Shown piece by piece: positions 14,466 through 23,821 of a stretch of 64,000 nt of DNA. The notes below the pieces were generated by a model. It ran no database searches, was not told the DNA's origin, and saw nothing but the letters and a program-made list of their open reading frames with translations. Position numbers and translations under genes: made by a program. Source of the stretch: Escherichia phage vB_EcoM_G2494. The stretch is from sequence record MK327935.1, one strand, 5' to 3'. Position 1 is the first letter of the stretch. The number at the start of each line of letters is the position of its first letter.

Positions 14466-16195
14466 ATAACGCATTAACATCATTTCGCGGGATGCGCAAG
14501 GAAGCGGAAGAAAACCCGATTGATAAACTTAACAAATTAGATAAACTTGATTCTATTGATAATTTGCAAGCTGCTACCGAATTGGTGGCAGAGACAGTAG
14601 AACAAAAATCTAATGAAGTTGTTGGTGCGGTCGAGGATAACACCGCAGCCAATGAATTGACGGCAGAAAATACACAATCTACCGCTGGCAATACCCAAAA
14701 AACTTATGAAGAATTGCAAAAACTCAATAATTTCTCTTCTCAGATGAATGAGAAATTACGTGGTTTTGGTGTTATGATGGAACGTAGATTTGGTGTTGTC
14801 AGTAAAATGGCTAGCGGTATTGGTGCGATTGAAGAAGCATTGAAAAAACCGGAACAACCGCAAACAATGCCATCACCTCAGCCAGTTTTGCCTACTGTAC
14901 CGGAACAGCCTAACAATGACAACTATCAAGGTCTTCCAAAGAAAAAACCAGATGCTGATGACCGAAAGAAAAAGAACGTCACAGATAAGCGTAATGCTGA
15001 TTCTATGGAAAATCTTCTTAAAGTTGTTCGTGGAGGATTTAAAGAAACCATAGGTATCTCTAATAAGGTCTTAGGGATGTTATTTAAGATCACCTTGACC
15101 GCTATGGCAGAAGCCGCAAAATGGGGTGCCATTTTGATGGGTATTGTTTTTGTCATTGATACCCTGATGGTTCATTTCAGATATTGGAGCGATTTATTCG
15201 AGACAAAATTCAGTGAATTTATGGATAAAGCCGGAGAATGGGCTGGACCAATTAGTGATATTCTAACAACTATTCGTCAAGTTCGAGATTATTGGTCTAA
15301 AGGCGAATATGGAGAGTTAATTAAATCTCTTGTTATGGGTATTGGTGATGCATTCTATAAAACCTTTATCCAACTTGATCGAATTATCACTACTGGTATT
15401 GCTAAAATTCTTCGCATGATCCCTGGTATGGGTGATTATGCCGATAAGTTAGAATATGGTGCTTTAAAATCTGCTGTCGCTCAAGGCTATACGCCAAATG
15501 AAAGAGAACTCGAATTAATGGATAAGGTCGAGTCTGAACACGAAGAGGACAAATACGGGGAGCGTACTGGTTGGGCCGGAAAAGCCCGTGATATTGGTGA
15601 GGCTATCGGTGACTCCATTAAAGATAAAGTTAATGAAGGACTTGTTAGTCTGGGATGGAGAGATCAAAAGGATGTTGACGCAGAGAAGCGACAAGAAGAA
15701 TTAAAGCGCGGGGAATATGAGTCTGTTTCTGCTGAACAACGATCTGCTAGTCGTAAACTTAGAATTAAAAGTGAGGGCGCGATCAATAATATTAATGAAG
15801 TTATGGAGAACTTGAGCGGTGACTATGACAAAGAAAGAATGGGAGAGTTGAAAAGGGATATTGATGTTTACCGTGAGAAAGTTCAAGATCCTACATTAGT
15901 TGAAAGTGATCGTTCTCAGTTAGAGCGTCTTATTGAAAAATTTGATGAGATGTATGCTGATAAGACTAAGGGTGTTGTGCAAACACAGCCGGTTCCTGCA
16001 ACTGAAACGGAAACAGCAAAACAAGCGGAGCGTACTGAACAAATGCAGAAACAAGCTGCAATCCAGCAACAAACGACAAATCAGACCTCAAACGTAAATA
16101 ATACACAAATTGTAACAAACAATAGAACTATTAAACAGGGTGCACCAACAACTAGAATTGATGCCCCCGGTACAATTAATATGGGGAACTTTTAA
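14462..16195 (+). CDS. 29: baseplate hub / tail-length determinator gp29
   Basis: 577 aa, synteny, coiled/extended composition. Confidence 0.78.
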   Translation: MNNALTSFRGMRKEAEENPIDKLNKLDKLDSIDNLQAATELVAETVEQKSNEVVGAVEDNTAANELTAENTQSTAGNTQKTYEELQKLNNFSSQMNEKLRGFGVMMERRFGVVSKMASGIGAIEEALKKPEQPQTMPSPQPVLPTVPEQPNNDNYQGLPKKKPDADDRKKKNVTDKRNADSMENLLKVVRGGFKETIGISNKVLGMLFKITLTAMAEAAKWGAILMGIVFVIDTLMVHFRYWSDLFETKFSEFMDKAGEWAGPISDILTTIRQVRDYWSKGEYGELIKSLVMGIGDAFYKTFIQLDRIITTGIAKILRMIPGMGDYADKLEYGALKSAVAQGYTPNERELELMDKVESEHEEDKYGERTGWAGKARDIGEAIGDSIKDKVNEGLVSLGWRDQKDVDAEKRQEELKRGEYESVSAEQRSASRKLRIKSEGAINNINEVMENLSGDYDKERMGELKRDIDVYREKVQDPTLVESDRSQLERLIEKFDEMYADKTKGVVQTQPVPATETETAKQAERTEQMQKQAAIQQQTTNQTSNVNNTQIVTNNRTIKQGAPTTRIDAPGTINMGNF

Positions 16196-17253
16196 TGAAA
16201 ATTAGTGTTATCAATGATGCCGTTGATAGCTTTAAAGCGGGGGTTAAAACCTCCGCTGGTTTTACCTCAAAAAATAAAGGGAAAACATTAACCGCTCAAT
16301 TCCCCGCTGAACGTGCTAGCGGTAATGATGCTAGCGGTTATTATATCAACGACTTATATAATAATGGTCTGTTATTCACTGCATACGATTACACATCTCG
16401 TACTACTGGATCGCTGCGTGATTTCAGGAAAAAGAAAAATGTTGCTAGCGGTTTTGGCGGTAGCGTTAATATCGCTGGTTTTGATTTAAATTTGGGTGGG
16501 AGAAATGCTGCATTTGACCGAGAGGCAATTGCTAATATTCTTCTTCCTCGTAGTCAATCTGACGTTGACGCTGCCAGCCATAAGTTTAATGATGTTGGTG
16601 AATCTGTTATTTCTCGCGGCGGTGGTACTTTAGGCGGTGCTCTTTCTAATATGGCATCTACTGCCGTTTTTGGTGGTATCGAAAGTATTACTGGTGGATA
16701 CCTTGCCGATCACGGTGAACAGATTTATAATACTGCGCGAAGCATGTATGCGGGTGCTGACGCACGAACGAAAAACTACGTATGGCATCTAACCCCACGT
16801 AGTATTGAAGACCTTCGCAATATTCTGATCATATACGAAACGTTTTTAGAATTGTCTTATGGTTCTAGTGGTATTTCCAGCACCGCAAAAGAATTAAAAG
16901 CGGAAGTTGATGCGTGGTATAAAAATACACTATTGAGAAAATCCACTCCAGAGGAAGCGAAGAGAAATGATACTCTGTTTGAAGGGATCACCGATTTTCT
17001 ATCAAACGTAATTACTGTATCTAACCCGACAATATGGATGATCTCTAACTTCGGCAAGCGTACATCGTTTGAAGGGCGTAGCGATGCATTTGGTCCCGCT
17101 CAGATCTCAAGTGTACGTCTGGACAAGTCGCCTGATGGTAAGTTTAATGGCCTTGCTATTTCTCCTAACTTGCCGAGTACCTTTGTTCTGGAAGTAACAT
17201 TTAGAGAGATCTTGACACTTTCCCGTGGTACTATATTTGGGAGTGCGGCATAA
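16195..17253 (+). CDS. 48: baseplate tail-tube cap gp48
   Basis: Synteny and size. Confidence 0.78.
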   Translation: MKISVINDAVDSFKAGVKTSAGFTSKNKGKTLTAQFPAERASGNDASGYYINDLYNNGLLFTAYDYTSRTTGSLRDFRKKKNVASGFGGSVNIAGFDLNLGGRNAAFDREAIANILLPRSQSDVDAASHKFNDVGESVISRGGGTLGGALSNMASTAVFGGIESITGGYLADHGEQIYNTARSMYAGADARTKNYVWHLTPRSIEDLRNILIIYETFLELSYGSSGISSTAKELKAEVDAWYKNTLLRKSTPEEAKRNDTLFEGITDFLSNVITVSNPTIWMISNFGKRTSFEGRSDAFGPAQISSVRLDKSPDGKFNGLAISPNLPSTFVLEVTFREILTLSRGTIFGSAA

Positions 17254-18185
17254 TGTTTGATTTAAATGACTTTAACGAACAAGCCGCTAACCTTGACTTT
17301 CAGCGATCTAACTTATTCAGCGTGGCATTTGCCACCACTCCAAGTAATAAGACACAAGCGATCCTAGAAAGTATGGGTGGTGCGGTATATGATATTATAC
17401 CAAATGCATTAAATGACTATTTCGGGATTACTCGTGGTGATTATACTGACGCATTAACAAATCTTGCTGTACAGGGTGTTAGGCGTGCTGTTGATTCATC
17501 TGGTGTCAAAAAGTATCTTTTAGGTGCAATGTCATCCCGCGTAGTTCAATCTCTTCTGGGGCAATTTGATGTTGGTACGTATGCTCTTGACTGGTTCAAT
17601 ATGGCATATAAGACAAGCGGTCTTCTGGTGTATGCTGTTAAGGTTCCAGAAAACAGATTGAATTATGAAATGGACCGCAACCACAATGCGCCAAACATTC
17701 GAATTACCGGACGTGATTTTGATCCGCTTGTATTGAGCTTTAGAATGGACTCTAGCGCATCAAACTATAGAGCAATGCAGGATTGGGTTAACTCAGTAGA
17801 AGACCCCGTTACAGGGCTTCGTGCGCTTCCTGTTGACGTTGAAGCAGATATTCAGGTTAACTTACATAACCGAATGGGAGTTCCTCACACGATCATGATG
17901 TTTAATGGTTGTGTTCCTGTTGGTGTGAGTGCACCGGAATTAACCTATGAAAATAACAACGAAATTACAACATTCGATGTTACTTTCGCATATCGTTCTA
18001 TGCAAACTGGTGCTGTAGGAGAGCAAGCCGCGCGAGAATGGATTGAGGATAAGGCAATAAACGCAATAACAAACACTTTCGGCAATAATTTACTTGATAG
18101 TGGGTTATCTGCTGCTGGTAATGCTTTATCGCGTCTAAATGGCGTTGGTGGGCGTGTGGTGAATACTGTCACTAACTGGTTCTGA
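17253..18185 (+). CDS. 54: baseplate tail-tube initiator gp54
   Basis: Synteny and size. Confidence 0.78.
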   Translation: MFDLNDFNEQAANLDFQRSNLFSVAFATTPSNKTQAILESMGGAVYDIIPNALNDYFGITRGDYTDALTNLAVQGVRRAVDSSGVKKYLLGAMSSRVVQSLLGQFDVGTYALDWFNMAYKTSGLLVYAVKVPENRLNYEMDRNHNAPNIRITGRDFDPLVLSFRMDSSASNYRAMQDWVNSVEDPVTGLRALPVDVEADIQVNLHNRMGVPHTIMMFNGCVPVGVSAPELTYENNNEITTFDVTFAYRSMQTGAVGEQAAREWIEDKAINAITNTFGNNLLDSGLSAAGNALSRLNGVGGRVVNTVTNWF

Positions 18186-18194
18186 TAAGCGAAA

Positions 18195-18220
18195 GGCGGG
18201 GATTATCCCCCGCCTTTTTA
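18195..18220. terminator. bidirectional rho-independent terminator
   Basis: ggcgggg-attatc-ccccgcc hairpin followed by TTTTT; convergent genes end on both sides. Confidence 0.7.
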
Positions 18221-18703
18221 TTTTGCTAAATCATTGCAATATTTTAGTGCCTTAGTTTGAAATTCTGCGCTGTTAAGTTCTTCATAACGGTCATAATCAC
18301 CGTTTAATGCTGCCTTTCTTGCTTCTTGCTCTATCTGCATGTCAGACATGATAATACAGCGATCCCGTGCTTTCATCTTCTCAAGTTGTATAGACTCTTC
18401 TTTCTGCTTGCGCAATTCTTCTTGACGCTTCTTTTCTTCTTGTGCTTTCTCTTCCCGCGCTTCTTTGATTGCATCCTTGAACATCTGCGTTTGTGGTGCT
18501 AAACCAACTTTAACGCGATCTACGTCTCGACGTTCCATTTTAGAAATAAAGCATGATTCGATCTTATCATCACTTGCATATGTTGCTTTACATTCACGAA
18601 GCAAGAAAACCGGATCTGATTTAGCATTCATCATAGCTTCCATGTTAGCACAACCAGTAAGCATGAATACAGCCGCAAGACCAATTAGTTTAATCATTTT
18701 CAT
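18218..18703 (-). CDS. predicted lipoprotein with coiled-coil region (161 aa)
   Basis: Signal peptide with lipobox LTGC (MKMIKLIGLAAVFMLTGC); GAGGTG SD. Confidence 0.6.
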   Translation of the reverse strand: MKMIKLIGLAAVFMLTGCANMEAMMNAKSDPVFLLRECKATYASDDKIESCFISKMERRDVDRVKVGLAPQTQMFKDAIKEAREEKAQEEKKRQEELRKQKEESIQLEKMKARDRCIIMSDMQIEQEARKAALNGDYDRYEELNSAEFQTKALKYCNDLAK

Positions 18704-19524
18704 TTAGTCACCTCACCGAAAATTGTAAATTGTCTACGATTCTCATCGCCGAAAGATTCTACTACGTCGTTTACCTTGACGCAAGTCCCGCGCGGTAAAA
18801 TTACTTCACATTCGCAAGGGTTCCATGCAATGGACCCAACAACAAAACCTTTATGATCTTTTACATCAATCACCCATGATACATTACAAGAATGTTGCAT
18901 CTTTCCGGTCATTGATTCATATCGATTCTCACAATAAAGGCTAGTGCTGTTTGAAAGCCATCCTCCAAAGATGATCGGTGTCATGCTAGTAGATACAAAG
19001 TTTTTAAAGGTAAATTCCTTATCTTCAATAATACGCTCTATTGTCTGAATGTCAAGATGTTGACCGCGATAAAGAGTACCGTTTAACTTTTCGGTTTTAT
19101 CCATGACACAATCCATCAAATCAACAATCTCTGATATCTCATCGGTCATGTCTTCTTCCCCTAAGAGAGCACCATTTACCCATTCGTATTGTTCAGACAC
19201 ATAATCACAGATTGCATTATATTCTGCTGGGGTTATGTTGTTATGTTTGTAATGTTTGAATACATTATCTCCAAAGTCTTCGGAGTGTACTTCATACATC
19301 ACATTAATGATTTTCTTTACAAATCCATAATCTTGTGTCTCGCGCTCAAGGAAGCGGATAACCTTCACATAATCATCAAAGTTAATCTGATCGCTGATCA
19401 TTTCAGTGATCATGTAACCATTAATACCATCAATGTCATATGTTTCGATGTAATTATCCATACGTTCCATCATTGATTCGCGTGATTCTTCCGAAAGACG
19501 AAAATCCTGTAATTTCTTGAACAT
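18700..19524 (-). CDS. ADP-ribosyltransferase-like protein (Alt/Mod family paralog, 274 aa)
   Basis: R (LYRGQ), STS (FVSTSMT) and ExE (CECEVILPRG) motifs in the order seen in the Alt C-terminal domain. Confidence 0.6.
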   Translation of the reverse strand: MFKKLQDFRLSEESRESMMERMDNYIETYDIDGINGYMITEMISDQINFDDYVKVIRFLERETQDYGFVKKIINVMYEVHSEDFGDNVFKHYKHNNITPAEYNAICDYVSEQYEWVNGALLGEEDMTDEISEIVDLMDCVMDKTEKLNGTLYRGQHLDIQTIERIIEDKEFTFKNFVSTSMTPIIFGGWLSNSTSLYCENRYESMTGKMQHSCNVSWVIDVKDHKGFVVGSIAWNPCECEVILPRGTCVKVNDVVESFGDENRRQFTIFGEVTK

Positions 19525-19556
19525 TTTAAACCTCCCATATAACAGAAAACGGGGCT

Positions 19557-19585
19557 AGTATAAAACTAGTCCCCGTTTGAGTCAA
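19557..19585 (-). promoter_or_regulatory. early promoter with stem-loop (TTGACT-17-TATACT)
   Basis: Minus strand GTTGACT ... TATACT; GGGGACTAGT/ACTAGCCCC inverted repeat spans the -10. Confidence 0.5.
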
Positions 19586-19602
19586 CCATTATTTCTTAAA
19601 AA

Positions 19603-21654
19603 TTACATTTTAAATTTATCTGGCATTGCGTCTACCGATACCAGATCAGCGATAAGCTGACGTAGAGTTGCCTTATCTGCTTTCTTACGTTCGGTTTTAG
19701 CTTCGGTAATAAATCTGGAGAAAGACAGGTCAGAAGCAGGTTTAACAACACCTTCACGGATGAATGCATCACCGTCCGCGATCATCTCACCAGATTCTTG
19801 TAATGCTGCCAGTTCATTTTTGTTCATAATATGTGCCTCAATGTAATAAGTTTCTTGTGAATCCGTCGATGCCGTAGCACGAGTTACCGTATCAAAGGAT
19901 AACACAACACCGCGAGGAAGTAAAATCTCGCATTCTTTGTAAGCAAATGCTTTGTTACCTACTGGCAACACAGGGATGTTTTCCGCGCCAGCAATGGAGA
20001 AAGCAACATTAGCGCCACCTTCACCGCGAGAGCCAGCCATAGAATCAACACCAGCAACGGCACTAGCCACGTTTGCATTCCAGCCGCCAAAAATGTTAGG
20101 TGCAAGGGAAGTGCTCACATAGTTTTTAAAGTAAAACGCTTTTTGCTTACGTGCAGTTTCCCACATTTGCGACCGGAAGTCCATACCACGATACAGAATA
20201 GTACCCGGATCAAGTTTAACGCCATAGTTGGAGAAGGCATTATCCAGTGCATCACACATCTTGACCAATTCTTCTGGATCTGCGATGCCTTCAAACTCTT
20301 CCAGCTTACGGTCGGTTAGGAAGTTGTTCATATTGATGTATGCTGCATCGGCATATTCGCTCAACACAAAACCTTCCGCGCCTGGCAGATCAAGATCAAT
20401 ATTTGCCATCATTTCACCCATGTTGCTAGCAATTGCTTCAAACATACCGGAAGCAACATTACGTAGGGCATCGGTTTTAATCTGGGTGATATGACTACGC
20501 AGCATTTCAGCTTTTACATCTGCTGGCATAGACTGGTCTACTCGATCCATTGCCAGGGCGGTGATCTTGTTTTCGAATACTTCCTCGCTCATGATTTCTT
20601 TTAAGCGTTTGATTGATGCTGCGATAACTTCCGCAGACAACGGATCATATTGATCCTGAACTTTTACCAGTTCGCTTACTGCGTATTTTGCATCGGCTTC
20701 GCTTTCAAAAATAGTACGCATGAAACCATAGCGAGTGATAATATCACTTGTCCATTCATTCAGAGAACGGGCGGTTGAACGTTCTAAGGCTTGACGATCA
20801 ATCAGAGTATTAAACTGTTTCTTAGGTTCGGCTTCGGTGATATCTTCTTCCGGTTTAAGATTAATTTTTTCTGGATGATTCACATAGTCGCTGTTATAGG
20901 TCGCTTGAGTTTTCAGCATTTCTTCTTTAGTCAAACGAGATTTAGCCGCTACGCGTTGTTCCGCTTCCGCGTTTCGTTCTTCTTCTGACACCAGACTAGC
21001 CGCATACGCCTCATCTTTAGTCAGAGATTCACCAGTAGCCTTAGATACCCAGCGATCACCTAAATCACTTTCTACTTTAGTGAACAAGGAATCATCAAGT
21101 TTAATCCCTTTAATCTTATCAATCGCCATACCGCGACGTTTGACAACAACTAAAGCGATCTTTTTGCTGGTCATTACTTCCTGCTGGAATACTTCAAACT
21201 TCGGTGTACGACGCACCAAACGCTCTATAACGCGCTTAACCAGTTCGGTCTTACCTTTCATGCGGGATACGTTAAAACGGAACATAACAGCGTCTAATTG
21301 CGCTTTACGGGCTGTTTCCATAACCACATCAAAAGCACTTGCCATAACTGCAATCGGGTTATCGCCTAGACCATTTTTAAGCTGTACAATACGACCGCTT
21401 TTGTTCATTTCGCACAGTACAACATGTGCGGTCTTGTCACCCATACGAATGATTTTAGGTGTTTTGTTGGTGAAGTTACAAAGACGGACAATCACATCTT
21501 TATCGCGTGTCTGTACTGCAAAAAGCTGTTTAGGATTCTGCTTAGGCTTTAAGCACTGTACCGGAGCAATACTGCCAAAGTTTTCTTCCTCTTCCGTCAA
21601 CAGCCATTTCTCGAAAGATTCAATCATTAGATCGTCGATTTCTAAGTTAAACAT
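19603..21654 (-). CDS. alt: Alt ADP-ribosyltransferase (packaged early-acting ART)
   Basis: 683 aa; C-terminal YRGMDFRS ... YVSTSLAP ... YKECEILLPRG R-S-ExE motifs; position between 54 and 30 as in T4. Confidence 0.8.
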   Translation of the reverse strand: MFNLEIDDLMIESFEKWLLTEEEENFGSIAPVQCLKPKQNPKQLFAVQTRDKDVIVRLCNFTNKTPKIIRMGDKTAHVVLCEMNKSGRIVQLKNGLGDNPIAVMASAFDVVMETARKAQLDAVMFRFNVSRMKGKTELVKRVIERLVRRTPKFEVFQQEVMTSKKIALVVVKRRGMAIDKIKGIKLDDSLFTKVESDLGDRWVSKATGESLTKDEAYAASLVSEEERNAEAEQRVAAKSRLTKEEMLKTQATYNSDYVNHPEKINLKPEEDITEAEPKKQFNTLIDRQALERSTARSLNEWTSDIITRYGFMRTIFESEADAKYAVSELVKVQDQYDPLSAEVIAASIKRLKEIMSEEVFENKITALAMDRVDQSMPADVKAEMLRSHITQIKTDALRNVASGMFEAIASNMGEMMANIDLDLPGAEGFVLSEYADAAYINMNNFLTDRKLEEFEGIADPEELVKMCDALDNAFSNYGVKLDPGTILYRGMDFRSQMWETARKQKAFYFKNYVSTSLAPNIFGGWNANVASAVAGVDSMAGSRGEGGANVAFSIAGAENIPVLPVGNKAFAYKECEILLPRGVVLSFDTVTRATASTDSQETYYIEAHIMNKNELAALQESGEMIADGDAFIREGVVKPASDLSFSRFITEAKTERKKADKATLRQLIADLVSVDAMPDKFKM

Positions 21655-21722
21655 TTTATATCCTCTAGTTGATAACCTATAAACCTATATTTATGAAAAC
21701 GGGGCTTAACGCCCCCTTTTTA

Positions 21723-22255: not shown

Positions 22256-22774
22256 TTAGTTATTTTTTAATTGCTCATCTTGCAATAGGGCAATCACATG
22301 CTGGCGATGTTCTTCCGATTGAGGCACACCGAAAAAGTTTGTTTTGTAGAAATACTCTAATCGGTCTTCTCGTGTGCTCTCTTCCATCATGATCGCGGGT
22401 AGTCCGAGATTTCGGAAACGTCGCTTTTCTGCTGGCGTAAAATCACTGTAATACATCATAGAATCATCATTACCAGCAATGCTAAACTCATCCTTCATGA
22501 AGGAGAATATTGCGTTTAAACGCTGTTTACCGTCCACGATTTCGATCTCATAGCGAGAGCCATCATCAATCTTAGCCATTGCGATAGCACCAACCGGAAA
22601 ATCATTAATCAGGTTTTCGATAAACATACGTTTGTTTTCGGTGTCCCATACTAAAGGACGCTGATAATCTGGGTTCATGTTGATATAGCCATCTTCTAAC
22701 CATGCATCATAAACAGAGATGACAAAGTTTTTAGTATTGGTATAGTAACGGCGTTTAGGCGTTAAACGGTTCAT
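22256..22774 (-). CDS. DUF262 / ParB-like domain protein (172 aa)
   Basis: DYQRPLVW and DGKQR motifs; ATG at 22774 with AGGAG SD, 1 nt after upstream stop (ORF-track start 22810 overlaps the upstream gene). Confidence 0.6.
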   Translation of the reverse strand: MNRLTPKRRYYTNTKNFVISVYDAWLEDGYINMNPDYQRPLVWDTENKRMFIENLINDFPVGAIAMAKIDDGSRYEIEIVDGKQRLNAIFSFMKDEFSIAGNDDSMMYYSDFTPAEKRRFRNLGLPAIMMEESTREDRLEYFYKTNFFGVPQSEEHRQHVIALLQDEQLKNN

Positions 22775-22775
22775 G

Positions 22776-23105
22776 TTATAGTCTCCTGAATGGATCATCA
22801 CGTAAATCAATATCTTTTAAGAACTCATCCCATGAATGGCGGATATTGTTCTTAATTCTCCAGATAAGAGCAGGGATTGAACGCTCTCCCATCTGGAAGT
22901 ATGGATCATATGATCCGTATGCCCAATATGCTACTACAATTCCACAATCAGCGCAATAGTATTCTATTTCACTTGCTGGCGACAAAAGTCCATCAATATG
23001 ATCGGTGATCTTGCTTTCGATGTTATGGCTATGACAATCAGGGCAACGGATGCAATGACCTTGTTTATCGTAATTTGATGTTAGTGAATACTTAAACAAT
23101 CTCAT
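22776..23105 (-). CDS. Cys-rich zinc-ribbon protein (109 aa)
   Basis: CIRCPDCHSH ... CADCG cysteine pairs. Confidence 0.55.
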   Translation of the reverse strand: MRLFKYSLTSNYDKQGHCIRCPDCHSHNIESKITDHIDGLLSPASEIEYYCADCGIVVAYWAYGSYDPYFQMGERSIPALIWRIKNNIRHSWDEFLKDIDLRDDPFRRL

Positions 23106-23821
23106 TATAGATCCTTATTTGCTTCAAATACTGCCTTTGCGAATCCTCGCGGGGTAAGTGACCTTATAGTCTTTGTTTTCGTTCCTTTCCCGCCTAGCTT
23201 AGAATGCTGTTTACTGTACCCTTTATTAATCTGCAACGGTTTCTTTTCTGGCATTATAAAGCCTTGTCCGGTCCATAAGCAAGTCTTTTTTGGGTACATA
23301 TCACGGGCGGCAATATACTCAGGAAACGTAGGATGCTTATCATCTTCCGGCAAATAACCGCCATATTCCCACGGATGGAACATATAATCAGGCTTACGCC
23401 ACATGCTAGAGATAACGCTTACAGGATTCTCTATCATGTAGGGAACTCCTAGCCATTCACCCAAATAAGCGGTTATTTTGGCTGCCCTTACATCATGAAC
23501 TTGAATCAATGGTCCTTGTTCTCGTTTCTTTCGTTCAAAGTGCGCAGCGCCACTAACAGCTAAATTGGTGCATGGTGGGAATGCAAAGATAATATCCGGT
23601 TTCCCCCATTCAAGGTCCATTGCTCTTTCTAGCCAGTTAAAATCAATCCATGTGTTTACATAGGTAATGTTTGGATGTTCAAATCTGGTATTATACTTTT
23701 TGTATGTTCCGTGGTCGCCATCGTCAGCATTAAAGCAGATCACCTTATGACCTGCTTTAGCCCATTCTAACCCCATTATCCCCGATCCGTCAAAGTTACA
23801 GAATATTAATTTTTGTTTCAT
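23105..23821 (-). CDS. compact cytosine-C5 methyltransferase-like protein (238 aa)
   Basis: FxGxG (res 10-14), acidic FNADD (res 30-34), PPC (res 82-84) and ENP (res 131-133) with spacing like C5-MTase motifs I, II, IV, VI; no obvious target-recognition domain. Confidence 0.5.
   Translation of the reverse strand: MKQKLIFCNFDGSGIMGLEWAKAGHKVICFNADDGDHGTYKKYNTRFEHPNITYVNTWIDFNWLERAMDLEWGKPDIIFAFPPCTNLAVSGAAHFERKKREQGPLIQVHDVRAAKITAYLGEWLGVPYMIENPVSVISSMWRKPDYMFHPWEYGGYLPEDDKHPTFPEYIAARDMYPKKTCLWTGQGFIMPEKKPLQINKGYSKQHSKLGGKGTKTKTIRSLTPRGFAKAVFEANKDL

Follow-up and report, generated by a model that had tools for sequence, protein, structure and literature searches.

A compact, apparently long-diverged Alt-type ADP-ribosyltransferase gene behind its own predicted promoter cassette, next to alt in an RB49-like phage

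Why should a phage keep two genes for Alt-type ADP-ribosyltransferases (ARTs) side by side, one of full length and one reduced to the catalytic part? The question is raised by the 64-kb window analysed here, a stretch of MK327935.1 from an RB49-like T4-type phage of the genus Krischvirus (RB49/JSE/Phi1). The initial annotation had proposed two adjacent paralogues, Alt and a 274-aa Alt-like protein, with common catalytic motifs. Both reading frames are there (Table 1), and all the motifs it quoted are found in the translations (LYRGM and LYRGQ; FKNYVSTSLAPNIFGGW and FKNFVSTSMTPIIFGGW; YKECEILLPRG and CECEVILPRG). The paralogy itself is already known, since RefSeq annotates the short gene as "ADP-ribosyltransferase" and Nolan et al. 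2006 list RB49ORF183c as an alt duplication (PMC1524935); it is recorded in PHROGs as well. As a genomic observation, the pair is ordinary and already annotated. What is added here concerns the age of the short family and the purifying selection on it, the fixed module in which it resides, the regions missing from it, the separate putative promoters of the two genes, and the occurrence of modB without modA.

Table 1. Features of the alt region, numbered by position in the 64-kb window
Feature	Position	Strand	Evidence
Bidirectional terminator hairpin between lipoprotein gene (-) and gp54 (+)	18191..18218	both strands	11-bp stem
Predicted lipoprotein, 161 aa	18218..18703	(-)	ORF; signal peptide + lipobox LTGC; PHROG 16112
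Short ART, 274-aa compact Alt-type ADP-ribosyltransferase, RB49ORF183c family	18700..19524	(-)	ORF; PF03496; PHROG 15144; hhalign
alt / short-ART intergenic cassette, PeSL type (predicted)	19525..19602	(-)	promoter scan, hairpin folding, conservation
alt, 683-aa full-length Alt-type ADP-ribosyltransferase	19603..21654	(-)	ORF; PF03496; PHROG 802; BLASTP to T4 Alt
CATAAATA, late-promoter-like motif 5' of alt	21688..21695	(-)	7/8 match to T4-type late promoter TATAAATA
Intrinsic-terminator-like hairpin 5' of alt, GGGGCgttaaGCCCC + T-run	21701..21715	(-)	also in L006, T4

The larger protein is an Alt homologue along its entire length, N-terminal domain and C-terminal tail included. BLASTP aligns its residues 31-681 with T4 Alt at 27% identity over 695 aa (E=1e-60), the match to PHROG 802 runs end to end (16-683, E=2e-179), Pfam PF03496, which represents the R-S-E (cholera-toxin-like/C3-like) ARTs, is matched with 37.8 bits (gathering cutoff 23.4), and the 683-aa gene is annotated as alt in the RefSeq entry of JSE. 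The protein is composed of an N-terminal Alt domain of about 330 aa, a linker, an ART core carrying the catalytic residues R489, S514-T515-S516 and E574-x-E576, and a conserved C-terminal tail (DGD...MPDKFKM). PF26846 (Tevenvirinae_ADPRT) is present in precomputed annotations of Alt homologues and was unmatched in the Pfam scan of the window Alt, the family presumably being missing from the Pfam copy scanned; the assignment of the N-terminal domain is thus based on the PHROG and BLAST alignments. A PDB sequence search with Alt gave no match, and no NCBIfam family was matched by Alt, the short ART or the lipoprotein.

The sequence comparisons identify the 274-aa protein as an Alt-type, not a Mod-type, paralogue. 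It aligns with the window Alt at 37% identity over 109 aa (BLASTP, E=1e-16), matches PF03496 with 59.3 bits (gathering cutoff 23.4) and PHROG 15144 at E=8e-198, and hhalign, aligning the profile of the short family to that of the Alt family, returns a probability of 100% (E=1.5e-40, 225 columns). With ModA and ModB, the corresponding probability is 5.9% (BLAST E>1), and the Alt-family HMM misses both. The paralogy thus withstood the profile comparison that the initial annotation had named as its possible refutation: the catalytic motifs align. R153, S178-T179-S180 and E238/E240 of the short ART share alignment columns with the catalytic residues of the window Alt and, residue for residue, with R478, S503-505 and E574/E576 of T4 Alt, and the R, S-T-S and E-x-E residues of both window proteins are invariant in three homologue alignments. 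An ExE motif is an arginine-type signature, and arginine specificity is probable for both enzymes. The second Glu of the motif is essential in T4 Alt, as known from E577A (PMC11404850), which is residue 576 in the RefSeq translation.

The match of the short ART covers about Alt residues 379/380-611, hence it lacks about 330 aa at the N-terminus. The loss of the N-terminal region had been noted initially; that the conserved C-terminal tail of about 70 aa is missing too had been overlooked. What is left is a helical N-terminal subdomain together with the R-S-ExE core. Modelling covered the short ART and predicts an ART fold: its AF2 model (pLDDT 81.6, pTM 0.79) finds Certhrax, C3bot2, Vis, CDTa and iota-Ia in the PDB with Foldseek at E values of 2e-10 to 1e-8, and it also matches models of phage Alt and of "split Alt" (the latter at E of about 1e-14). 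Sequence search of the PDB with the short ART gave marginal matches only (E>=0.065). Between STS and ExE lies a loop (residues 188-209) that is conserved and specific to the family, and that the model renders with low confidence.

The short ART appears to belong to an old, long-diverged family and not to be a recent copy of the neighbouring alt, because foreign Alts outscore its own Alt (97 and 88 compared to 67 bits) and because the Krischvirus Alt clade is separate from the short clade (bootstrap 90) in a neighbour-joining (NJ) tree built from 167 columns of the ART core for 84 taxa, with 200 bootstraps. The tree recovers the short ARTs as a monophyletic clade (bootstrap 89), which reaches down to members of 33-47% identity. 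The deep placement of this clade has bootstrap values of at most 41, too low to assign it to the duplication that gave T2 alt.-1. Alt and some short ARTs both begin with "MFN"; an argument for internal deletion from this motif was discarded, since it is too short. Thirty columns and the catalytic residues are invariant in the short family, with members down to 29% identity, length is kept at 264-288 aa, and dN/dS values of 0.07-0.10 indicate strong purifying selection.

Regarding expression, the alt locus resembles that of T4, with gp54 and gp48 as neighbours and with a terminator and a late-promoter-like motif at the homologous position; in L006, a related locus, a ligase gene lies about 4 kb upstream of alt. 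In T4, the terminator is followed by TATAAATA and then by ACTAGAGAGGATAT-ATG. CATAAATA is the sole occurrence of that sequence in the window, and related motifs are found at the equivalent place 5' of alt in L006 (AATAAATA) and L012 (TCTAAATA). The canonical TATAAATA counts 8 occurrences with 5.6 expected, so the 8-mer by itself is not statistically distinctive, and the putative late-promoter role of CATAAATA draws its weight entirely from positional homology to T4. The hairpin in front of the motif may insulate alt from upstream early transcription; a terminator 5' of alt is conserved in five of six T4-like genomes (Nolan 2006; PMC1524935).

The interval between the two genes is organized differently. 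A predicted promoter with a -35 box TTGACT (19585-19580), a 17-nt spacer and a -10 box TATACT (19562-19557), scoring 10/12 in the promoter scan, overlaps a hairpin (19575-19550; CGGGG-A-CTAG / CTAG-CCCCG; dG -20 kcal/mol, z=-3.9) that is followed by a T-run (19549-19546) and the ribosome-binding site GGGAGG (19536-19531). The interval, read on the minus strand, thus combines the parts that define a PeSL, namely AT-rich upstream sequence, sigma-70 -35/-10 boxes, a stem-loop of G/C tracts, and a Shine-Dalgarno sequence with ATG, and it is predicted to be a PeSL-type promoter/terminator cassette. Arbiol et al. 2010 introduced PeSLs as early promoters plus terminators in RB49/phi1, and the activity of other PeSLs was demonstrated there with lacZ fusions (PMC2839356). 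TTGAC(A/T)-17-TATACT and the stem are kept in six of seven diverged lineages; among five sequences only, the stem is 97.8% paired and shows two compensatory pairs. The exception is L024, with a 26-nt spacer that lacks the -10 box and the hairpin, and a separate promoter for the short gene is therefore not universal. No late-promoter motif was found upstream of the short gene. Since a PeSL hairpin may weaken transcription and still let some of it pass, the short gene could also be expressed late by read-through from alt.

The module extends beyond the short gene. Its stop codon overlaps the ATG of the lipoprotein gene (ATGA), and the two genes appear to be translationally coupled and co-transcribed, the lipoprotein gene being the last of the cassette, ahead of a hairpin with 7 GC pairs in its stem and T-runs on each strand. 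PHROG 16112, the family of the 161-aa protein, is one of unknown function; the L006 homologue is 38% identical and keeps the lipobox. The order alt, short ART, ORF of 159-174 aa, gp54 was found in all eight independent contexts examined.

Taken together, we consider it about 60% probable that the two genes encode long-diverged arginine-type mono-ADP-ribosyltransferases deployed at different times. By homology with T4, alt would be transcribed late from the promoter-like motif behind the terminator, and Alt would be packaged into the head through parts other than the ART core and then injected together with the DNA, modifying host proteins at once. The short enzyme is most likely made early and not packaged. 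The initial annotation had suggested that it may escape packaging or have a different target, and the separate promoter motifs lend this indirect support. Its production in the cell would begin in the first minutes of infection via its own sigma-70 PeSL cassette, and a further round of ADP-ribosylation, with a substrate range of its own, would result, alongside the single ModB orthologue of the genus and without ModA. That the short ART has neither the N-terminal nor the C-terminal region of Alt does not in itself prove non-packaging. The searchable literature yielded no usable virion-proteome or expression data for Krischviruses. L/I-x-E tripeptides occur near both N-termini (L19-T20-E21 in Alt, L10-S11-E12 in the short ART); as sites of the prohead protease they were dismissed as packaging signal, being too frequent by chance in Glu-rich sequence.

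The two full-length enzymes that T2 encodes in tandem, alt and alt.-1, are likely to be co-packaged, and the Krischvirus enzymes might similarly both be late, packaged and injected together, the short form being a smaller internal head protein. The short gene comes immediately after alt and on its strand, the PeSL stem-loop may merely attenuate transcription, the L024 arrangement implies co-transcription in that case, and many phage ARTs are head-packaged (PMC9503650). We nevertheless regard this explanation as unlikely: a sigma-70 promoter and a terminator are kept between the genes in most lineages, the late-promoter motif is missing in front of the short gene, and the protein is devoid of every Alt region outside the catalytic part. 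It is also very improbable that the 274-aa frame is a functionless, decaying remnant of a second alt copy, comparable to alt.-1/alt.-2 of T4. Even though the corresponding slot of T4 holds non-catalytic pieces of an alt duplicate and split second copies exist elsewhere (L009: 273 + 415 aa), the low dN/dS, the invariant active site and the conserved length effectively refute decay, and the confident compact model and the gene's own ribosome-binding site and promoter point the same way.

Still less probable is that the protein represents the Krischvirus orthologue of T4 ModA or ModB. Similar size, probable early expression, a stand-alone ART domain and the absence of modA from RB49 would fit; the profile comparison, which together with BLAST and HMM searches revealed no similarity to Mod proteins, and the locus refute it. 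RB49 already carries a modB (ModA+B profile, E=3e-13) in the srd-adjacent slot of the dda-srd-modA-modB early cluster, and the short gene is located elsewhere, with alt on one side and gene 54 beyond it on the other. Rather unlikely is the proposal that counter-defence, or the modification of nucleic acid or NAD-capped RNA, is the main role of the short ART, and not modification of the transcription/translation machinery; the association with a variable lipoprotein would then mark an accessory host-range module. L025 is mosaic downstream of the PeSL (Alt 98%, short ART 83%, lipoprotein 34% identical), and such mosaicism is typical of accessory, arms-race genes. The ExE motif, with its arginine-type signature, speaks against the proposal, and the conserved family-specific loop for it. 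The R-S-E clade moreover includes the RNAylating ModB (PMC10468400) and a defence ART that modifies mRNA (PMC11618068). Returning to the two-phase deployment that we prefer, its more specific version can be put forward only tentatively: the short ART could be the functional ModA substitute of Krischviruses, early and non-packaged, completing or extending the modification of RNA polymerase alpha (Arg265) or hitting a distinct target set.

Phage ARTs are under renewed study for RNAylation by ModB and for ART-based defence and counter-defence. The Krischvirus pair provides a natural experiment, with one ART domain in the Alt packaging context and one bare, in a genus without ModA. If the split in timing and packaging is real, it would reveal the parts of Alt needed for virion incorporation, and it would offer an Alt-type enzyme that is compact, probably soluble and thus suited to the mapping of targets. 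If the short ART does substitute for ModA, the three-ART programme of T4 (one injected, then two early enzymes) would have been assembled independently from a different paralogue, and the short ART and the lipoprotein, bounded by the PeSL, would form a cassette that can be exchanged as a module.

Comparison with known systems places the pair among several related arrangements. T4 Alt (gpAlt, NP_049811), of the Alt/VIP2 family of R-S-E ARTs, agrees with the window Alt in catalytic residues, neighbourhood and layout of terminator and late promoter, at an identity of only about 27%. With the short ART it has the catalytic half in common (BLAST E of about 1e-23); the short ART lacks Alt residues 1 to about 330 and the last 70 or so, and has an early-type promoter of its own. 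T2 alt.-1, the second Alt of Citrobacter phage Ursula, and T4 alt.-1 and alt.-2 are likewise found between alt and gene 54; by pairwise distance they are marginally the nearest relatives of the short ART outside its family. The T2 and Ursula copies have the same Alt-type domain, but they have the full length of 685-707 aa and adjoin alt without a promoter; in T4 and T2, the second copy begins 3 nt past the alt stop codon, likewise with no promoter. T4 alt.-1 and alt.-2 preserve non-catalytic N-terminal fragments only, whereas the Krischvirus form preserves only the catalytic part. ModA and ModB, which in T4 are early products in contrast to the injected Alt (PMC2988021; PMC3014915), resemble the short ART, itself probably early, as small stand-alone, R...S...ExE-type enzymes, yet belong to another family and another locus. 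In the "split RNA polymerase ADP-ribosylase" of Acinetobacter phages ZZ1 and Henu6, the ART half is a separate ORF of similar structure, and metagenomic T4-like contigs contain split copies as well (L009, as above; L011, 356 + 316 aa). In split Alts an adjacent ORF still encodes the N-terminal half, and the C-terminal tail is retained on the ART half. Neither applies to the short ART, whose compact form has long been stable and which has an intact alt next to it. Lastly, the intergenic element shares its defining parts with the PeSL cassettes of RB49/phi1 (Arbiol et al. 2010; Comeau et al. 2014), with the difference that here it would separate a late gene from its early paralogue.

The two minus-strand reading frames of 683 and 274 aa lie exactly where the initial annotation had put an adjacent pair of ADP-ribosyltransferase (ART) paralogues; the feature is real and had been read correctly. 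Every motif string quoted there occurs in the translations, the paralogy is borne out by BLASTP of Alt against the short protein (37% identity over 109 residues, E=1e-16), and the N-terminal part of Alt said to be lacking from the short protein amounts in the alignment to ~330 residues. T4 Alt has an end-to-end homologue in the 683-aa protein (BLASTP: E=1e-60 at 27% identity), and the short protein corresponds to Alt residues ~379-611. The catalytic motifs hold under profile comparison, eight short-family members against eight Alts giving a probability of 100% (E=1.5e-40, 225 columns). Both proteins score above the gathering cutoff of Pfam PF03496, and the PHROG families that they match carry the annotation Alt-like or ADP-ribosyltransferase. 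The columns of the catalytic Arg, Ser-Thr-Ser and Glu-x-Glu coincide among T4 and T2 Alt, the second copies of T2 and Citrobacter phage Ursula, Krischvirus Alt and the short family, and the residues are invariant in the alignments. Mutation of the second Glu, given as E577A, abolishes T4 Alt activity (PMC11404850); that Glu is residue 576 in the translated RefSeq gene, so the two numberings appear to differ by one. AlphaFold2 models the short protein with confidence (pLDDT 81.6, pTM 0.79) except at residues 188-209, the loop between STS and ExE, and a structure search with this model retrieves C3-like, Vis, Certhrax and binary-toxin ARTs at E about 1e-10. In the R-S-E clade (catalytic Arg, Ser-Thr-Ser, Glu-x-Glu) the ExE ARTT motif is associated with arginine specificity, and by analogy both the short ART and Alt may be arginine-specific. 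The 188-209 loop and the pre-ExE segment are family-specific, conserved and unlike Alt's. Also absent from the short protein is the C-terminal ~70-residue tail of Alt (…DGD…ETG…MPxKF), which no full-length Alt in the alignments lacks and which the split ART halves of other phages keep as well.

Coordinates of genes and sequence elements at and around the alt locus
Feature	Coordinates	Strand	Remark
gp48	16195..17253	plus	ORF listing
gp54	17253..18185	plus	ORF listing
Predicted lipoprotein, 161 aa	18218..18703	minus	ORF listing
Short ART, 274 aa	18700..19524	minus	ORF listing
Hairpin	19575-19550	minus	dG -20 kcal/mol, z=-3.9
Predicted promoter TTGACT-17 nt-TATACT	19585-19557	minus	interwoven with hairpin
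alt, 683 aa	19603..21654	minus	ORF listing
C-terminal tail motif DGD..(M/I)(E/R)(T/E)G … MPxKF	19603-19830	minus	Alt residues ~610-683
Conserved alt leader block	window 21687-21655; L006 5897-5929; L012 3926-3957	minus (window)	Alt proteins just 39-46% identical
Late-promoter-like CATAAATA	21695-21688	minus	after hairpin, then RBS
Terminator hairpin	21715-21701	minus	sequence scan upstream of alt
PeSL-type element	22000-21972	minus	before small ORF
PeSL-type element	22247-22219	minus	before small ORF; palindromic spacer GGGGATCATCGATCCCC
184-aa ORF	22256-22810	minus
238-aa ORF	23105-23821	minus
RB49 modB orthologue, 167 aa	OZ035808 86701-87258 = NC_005066 8917-9420	minus (OZ035808)	adjoins srd; outside window

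The core finding of alt with a short paralogue is already known, because it is recorded in RefSeq (JSE, RB49 and Phi1, where the long gene is named alt and its short neighbour "ADP-ribosyltransferase"), in PHROG 15144 (274 positions, covering the whole of the short protein, E=8e-198), in BFVD (a structure model of the same protein) and by Nolan et al. (2006, PMC1524935), who describe RB49ORF183c, 44RR ORF188c and T4 alt.-1/alt.-2 as paralogous duplications of the adjacent alt. A literature search found no functional study of the short ART. The added value of our analysis is the regulatory and evolutionary context of the pair. Over the 4-kb region, 58 Krischvirus phage records, RB49, JSE, Phi1 and GEC-3S among them, show 98-99% identity to the window, and these alone in the phage collection carry full-length orthologues of the short ART, all at least 96% identical. 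Metagenomic members of 264-288 aa show 83, 63, 47, 46, 45, 44 and 33% identity, and only 87 relatives, nearly all of them Alts of 600-710 aa, turned up when 1.84 billion representatives were searched exhaustively. In a neighbour-joining tree of the ART core the short family forms a clade (bootstrap 89; 61 with the sequence P0012) and the Krischvirus-type Alts a separate one (bootstrap 90), deeper branches being unresolved. Judged by its scores, the short ART is an old paralogue and not a recent local copy, since foreign Alts outscore the Alt of its own genome as matches to it.

Every retrieved context has the same gene order: alt, short ART, an ORF of 159-174 aa, and gp54 on the opposite strand. 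Between the window and metagenomic contig L006, identity is 46% for Alt, ~45% for the short ART and 38% for the lipoprotein, with the lipobox retained. The start codon of the 161-aa ORF overlaps the stop of the short gene (ATGA), pointing to translational coupling. Its predicted lipoprotein product starts MKMIKLIGLAAVFMLTGC..., with a charged, coiled-coil-like middle and several Cys; neither Pfam nor NCBIfam has a family for it, and its PHROG, 16112, is without assigned function. The counterparts in every lineage are fast-evolving (dN/dS about 0.4, 34-45% identity). In metagenomic contig L025 (1-3567, against window 18218-21654) similarity to the window changes abruptly, in mosaic fashion, at the intergenic cassette: Alt is 98% identical (dS 0.29) and the cassette itself nearly identical; downstream, the short ART is 83% (dS 1.18) and the lipoprotein 34% identical. 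This pattern fits modular exchange of the short-ART/lipoprotein cassette mediated by the intergenic element.

By its sequence, the 78-nt spacer between alt and the short gene is of the PeSL (promoter-early stem-loop) design, for which Arbiol et al. (PMC2839356) demonstrated both early-promoter and terminator activity in RB49/phi1. The hairpin and T-run are followed by GGGAGG and the ATG of the short gene. Boxes, spacing and stem are kept in six of seven lineages despite flanking proteins at 33-63% identity; two stem pairs show compensatory changes, and 97.8% of cells are paired, compared with about 44% in slid controls. Upstream of alt, the order of hairpin, late-promoter-like motif and RBS region is that of T4, where the late promoter is the canonical TATAAATA and the RBS region nearly identical (ACTAGAGAGGATAT in T4, ACTAGAGGATAT in the window); the corresponding position holds AATAAATA in L006 and TCTAAATA in another metagenomic contig, L012. 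The 8-mer alone is statistically unremarkable, and the case for a late promoter is one of positional homology to T4. The leader block …GGTTATCAAC…GAGGA…, common to the window, L006 and L012, may serve in regulation or translation. Farther upstream, the boxes of the two additional PeSL-type elements match TTGACA-17-TATAAT/CATAAT perfectly or almost so. The IVDGKQRL motif of the 184-aa ORF, read by eye from the translation, recalls DUF262/ParB-like nuclease domains, and the 238-aa ORF is the counterpart of a JSE gene annotated as DNA methyltransferase.

The reading best supported by these sequences is a temporal division of labour between Alt and its compact paralogue. Full-length Alt would be a late product that, judging from its homologues, is packaged and injected; the compact paralogue would be synthesised in the cell from a predicted early promoter, would not be packaged, and would act as an arginine-type mono-ART with a substrate range of its own. 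Alternatively, read-through could lead to co-packaging of both enzymes. The exception among the seven lineages is that of contig L024 (1503-1530; short ART 46% identical), where the spacer after alt is only 26 nt and, with TTGACA kept, has neither -10 box nor hairpin; co-transcription of the short gene with alt is probable there. A counter-defence or nucleic-acid target is a further rival to the proposed division of labour. A decaying or dead remnant is effectively excluded by the dN/dS of 0.07-0.10.

In T4, Alt is injected and ModA and ModB are early (PMC2988021; PMC3014915). An all-ORF scan of the complete RB49 genome yields three ARTs, namely Alt, the short Alt-type protein and one Mod-type protein (ModB E=2e-9; ModA+B profile E=3e-13), which RefSeq has as modB in an srd-modB-56 cluster; T4 has srd-modA-modB at this place, and neither the scan nor the RefSeq annotation contains a modA in RB49. 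A functional analogy between the short ART and ModA is possible, though in our judgement less likely than not. Orthology to the Mod enzymes is effectively excluded: against a ModA/ModB/RB49-ModB profile the short family reaches a probability of 5.9%, compared with 100% for Alt, with agreement at the Arg and Ser motifs only, and the Alt-family HMM detects neither ModA nor ModB at all.

The slot next to alt is duplication-prone. T2 and Ursula have two full-length tandem alts, the second copy starting 3 nt after the alt stop in T2 as in T4, in contrast to the 78-nt spacer of the window, and in T4 N-terminal fragments alone remain (alt.-1 and alt.-2). In a T2-like metagenomic phage (L009 7183-9248; L010) the second alt is split into two ORFs that overlap by 4 nt, an N-terminal one of 273 aa and an ART ORF of 415 aa, a state present on 16 contigs; another phage (L011 2366-4386) has a split of 356 + 316 aa, and in Acinetobacter phages Alt is annotated as "split". 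The L009/L010 and L011 splits are intermediate states between T2, with its intact alt.-1, and T4, with fragments only.
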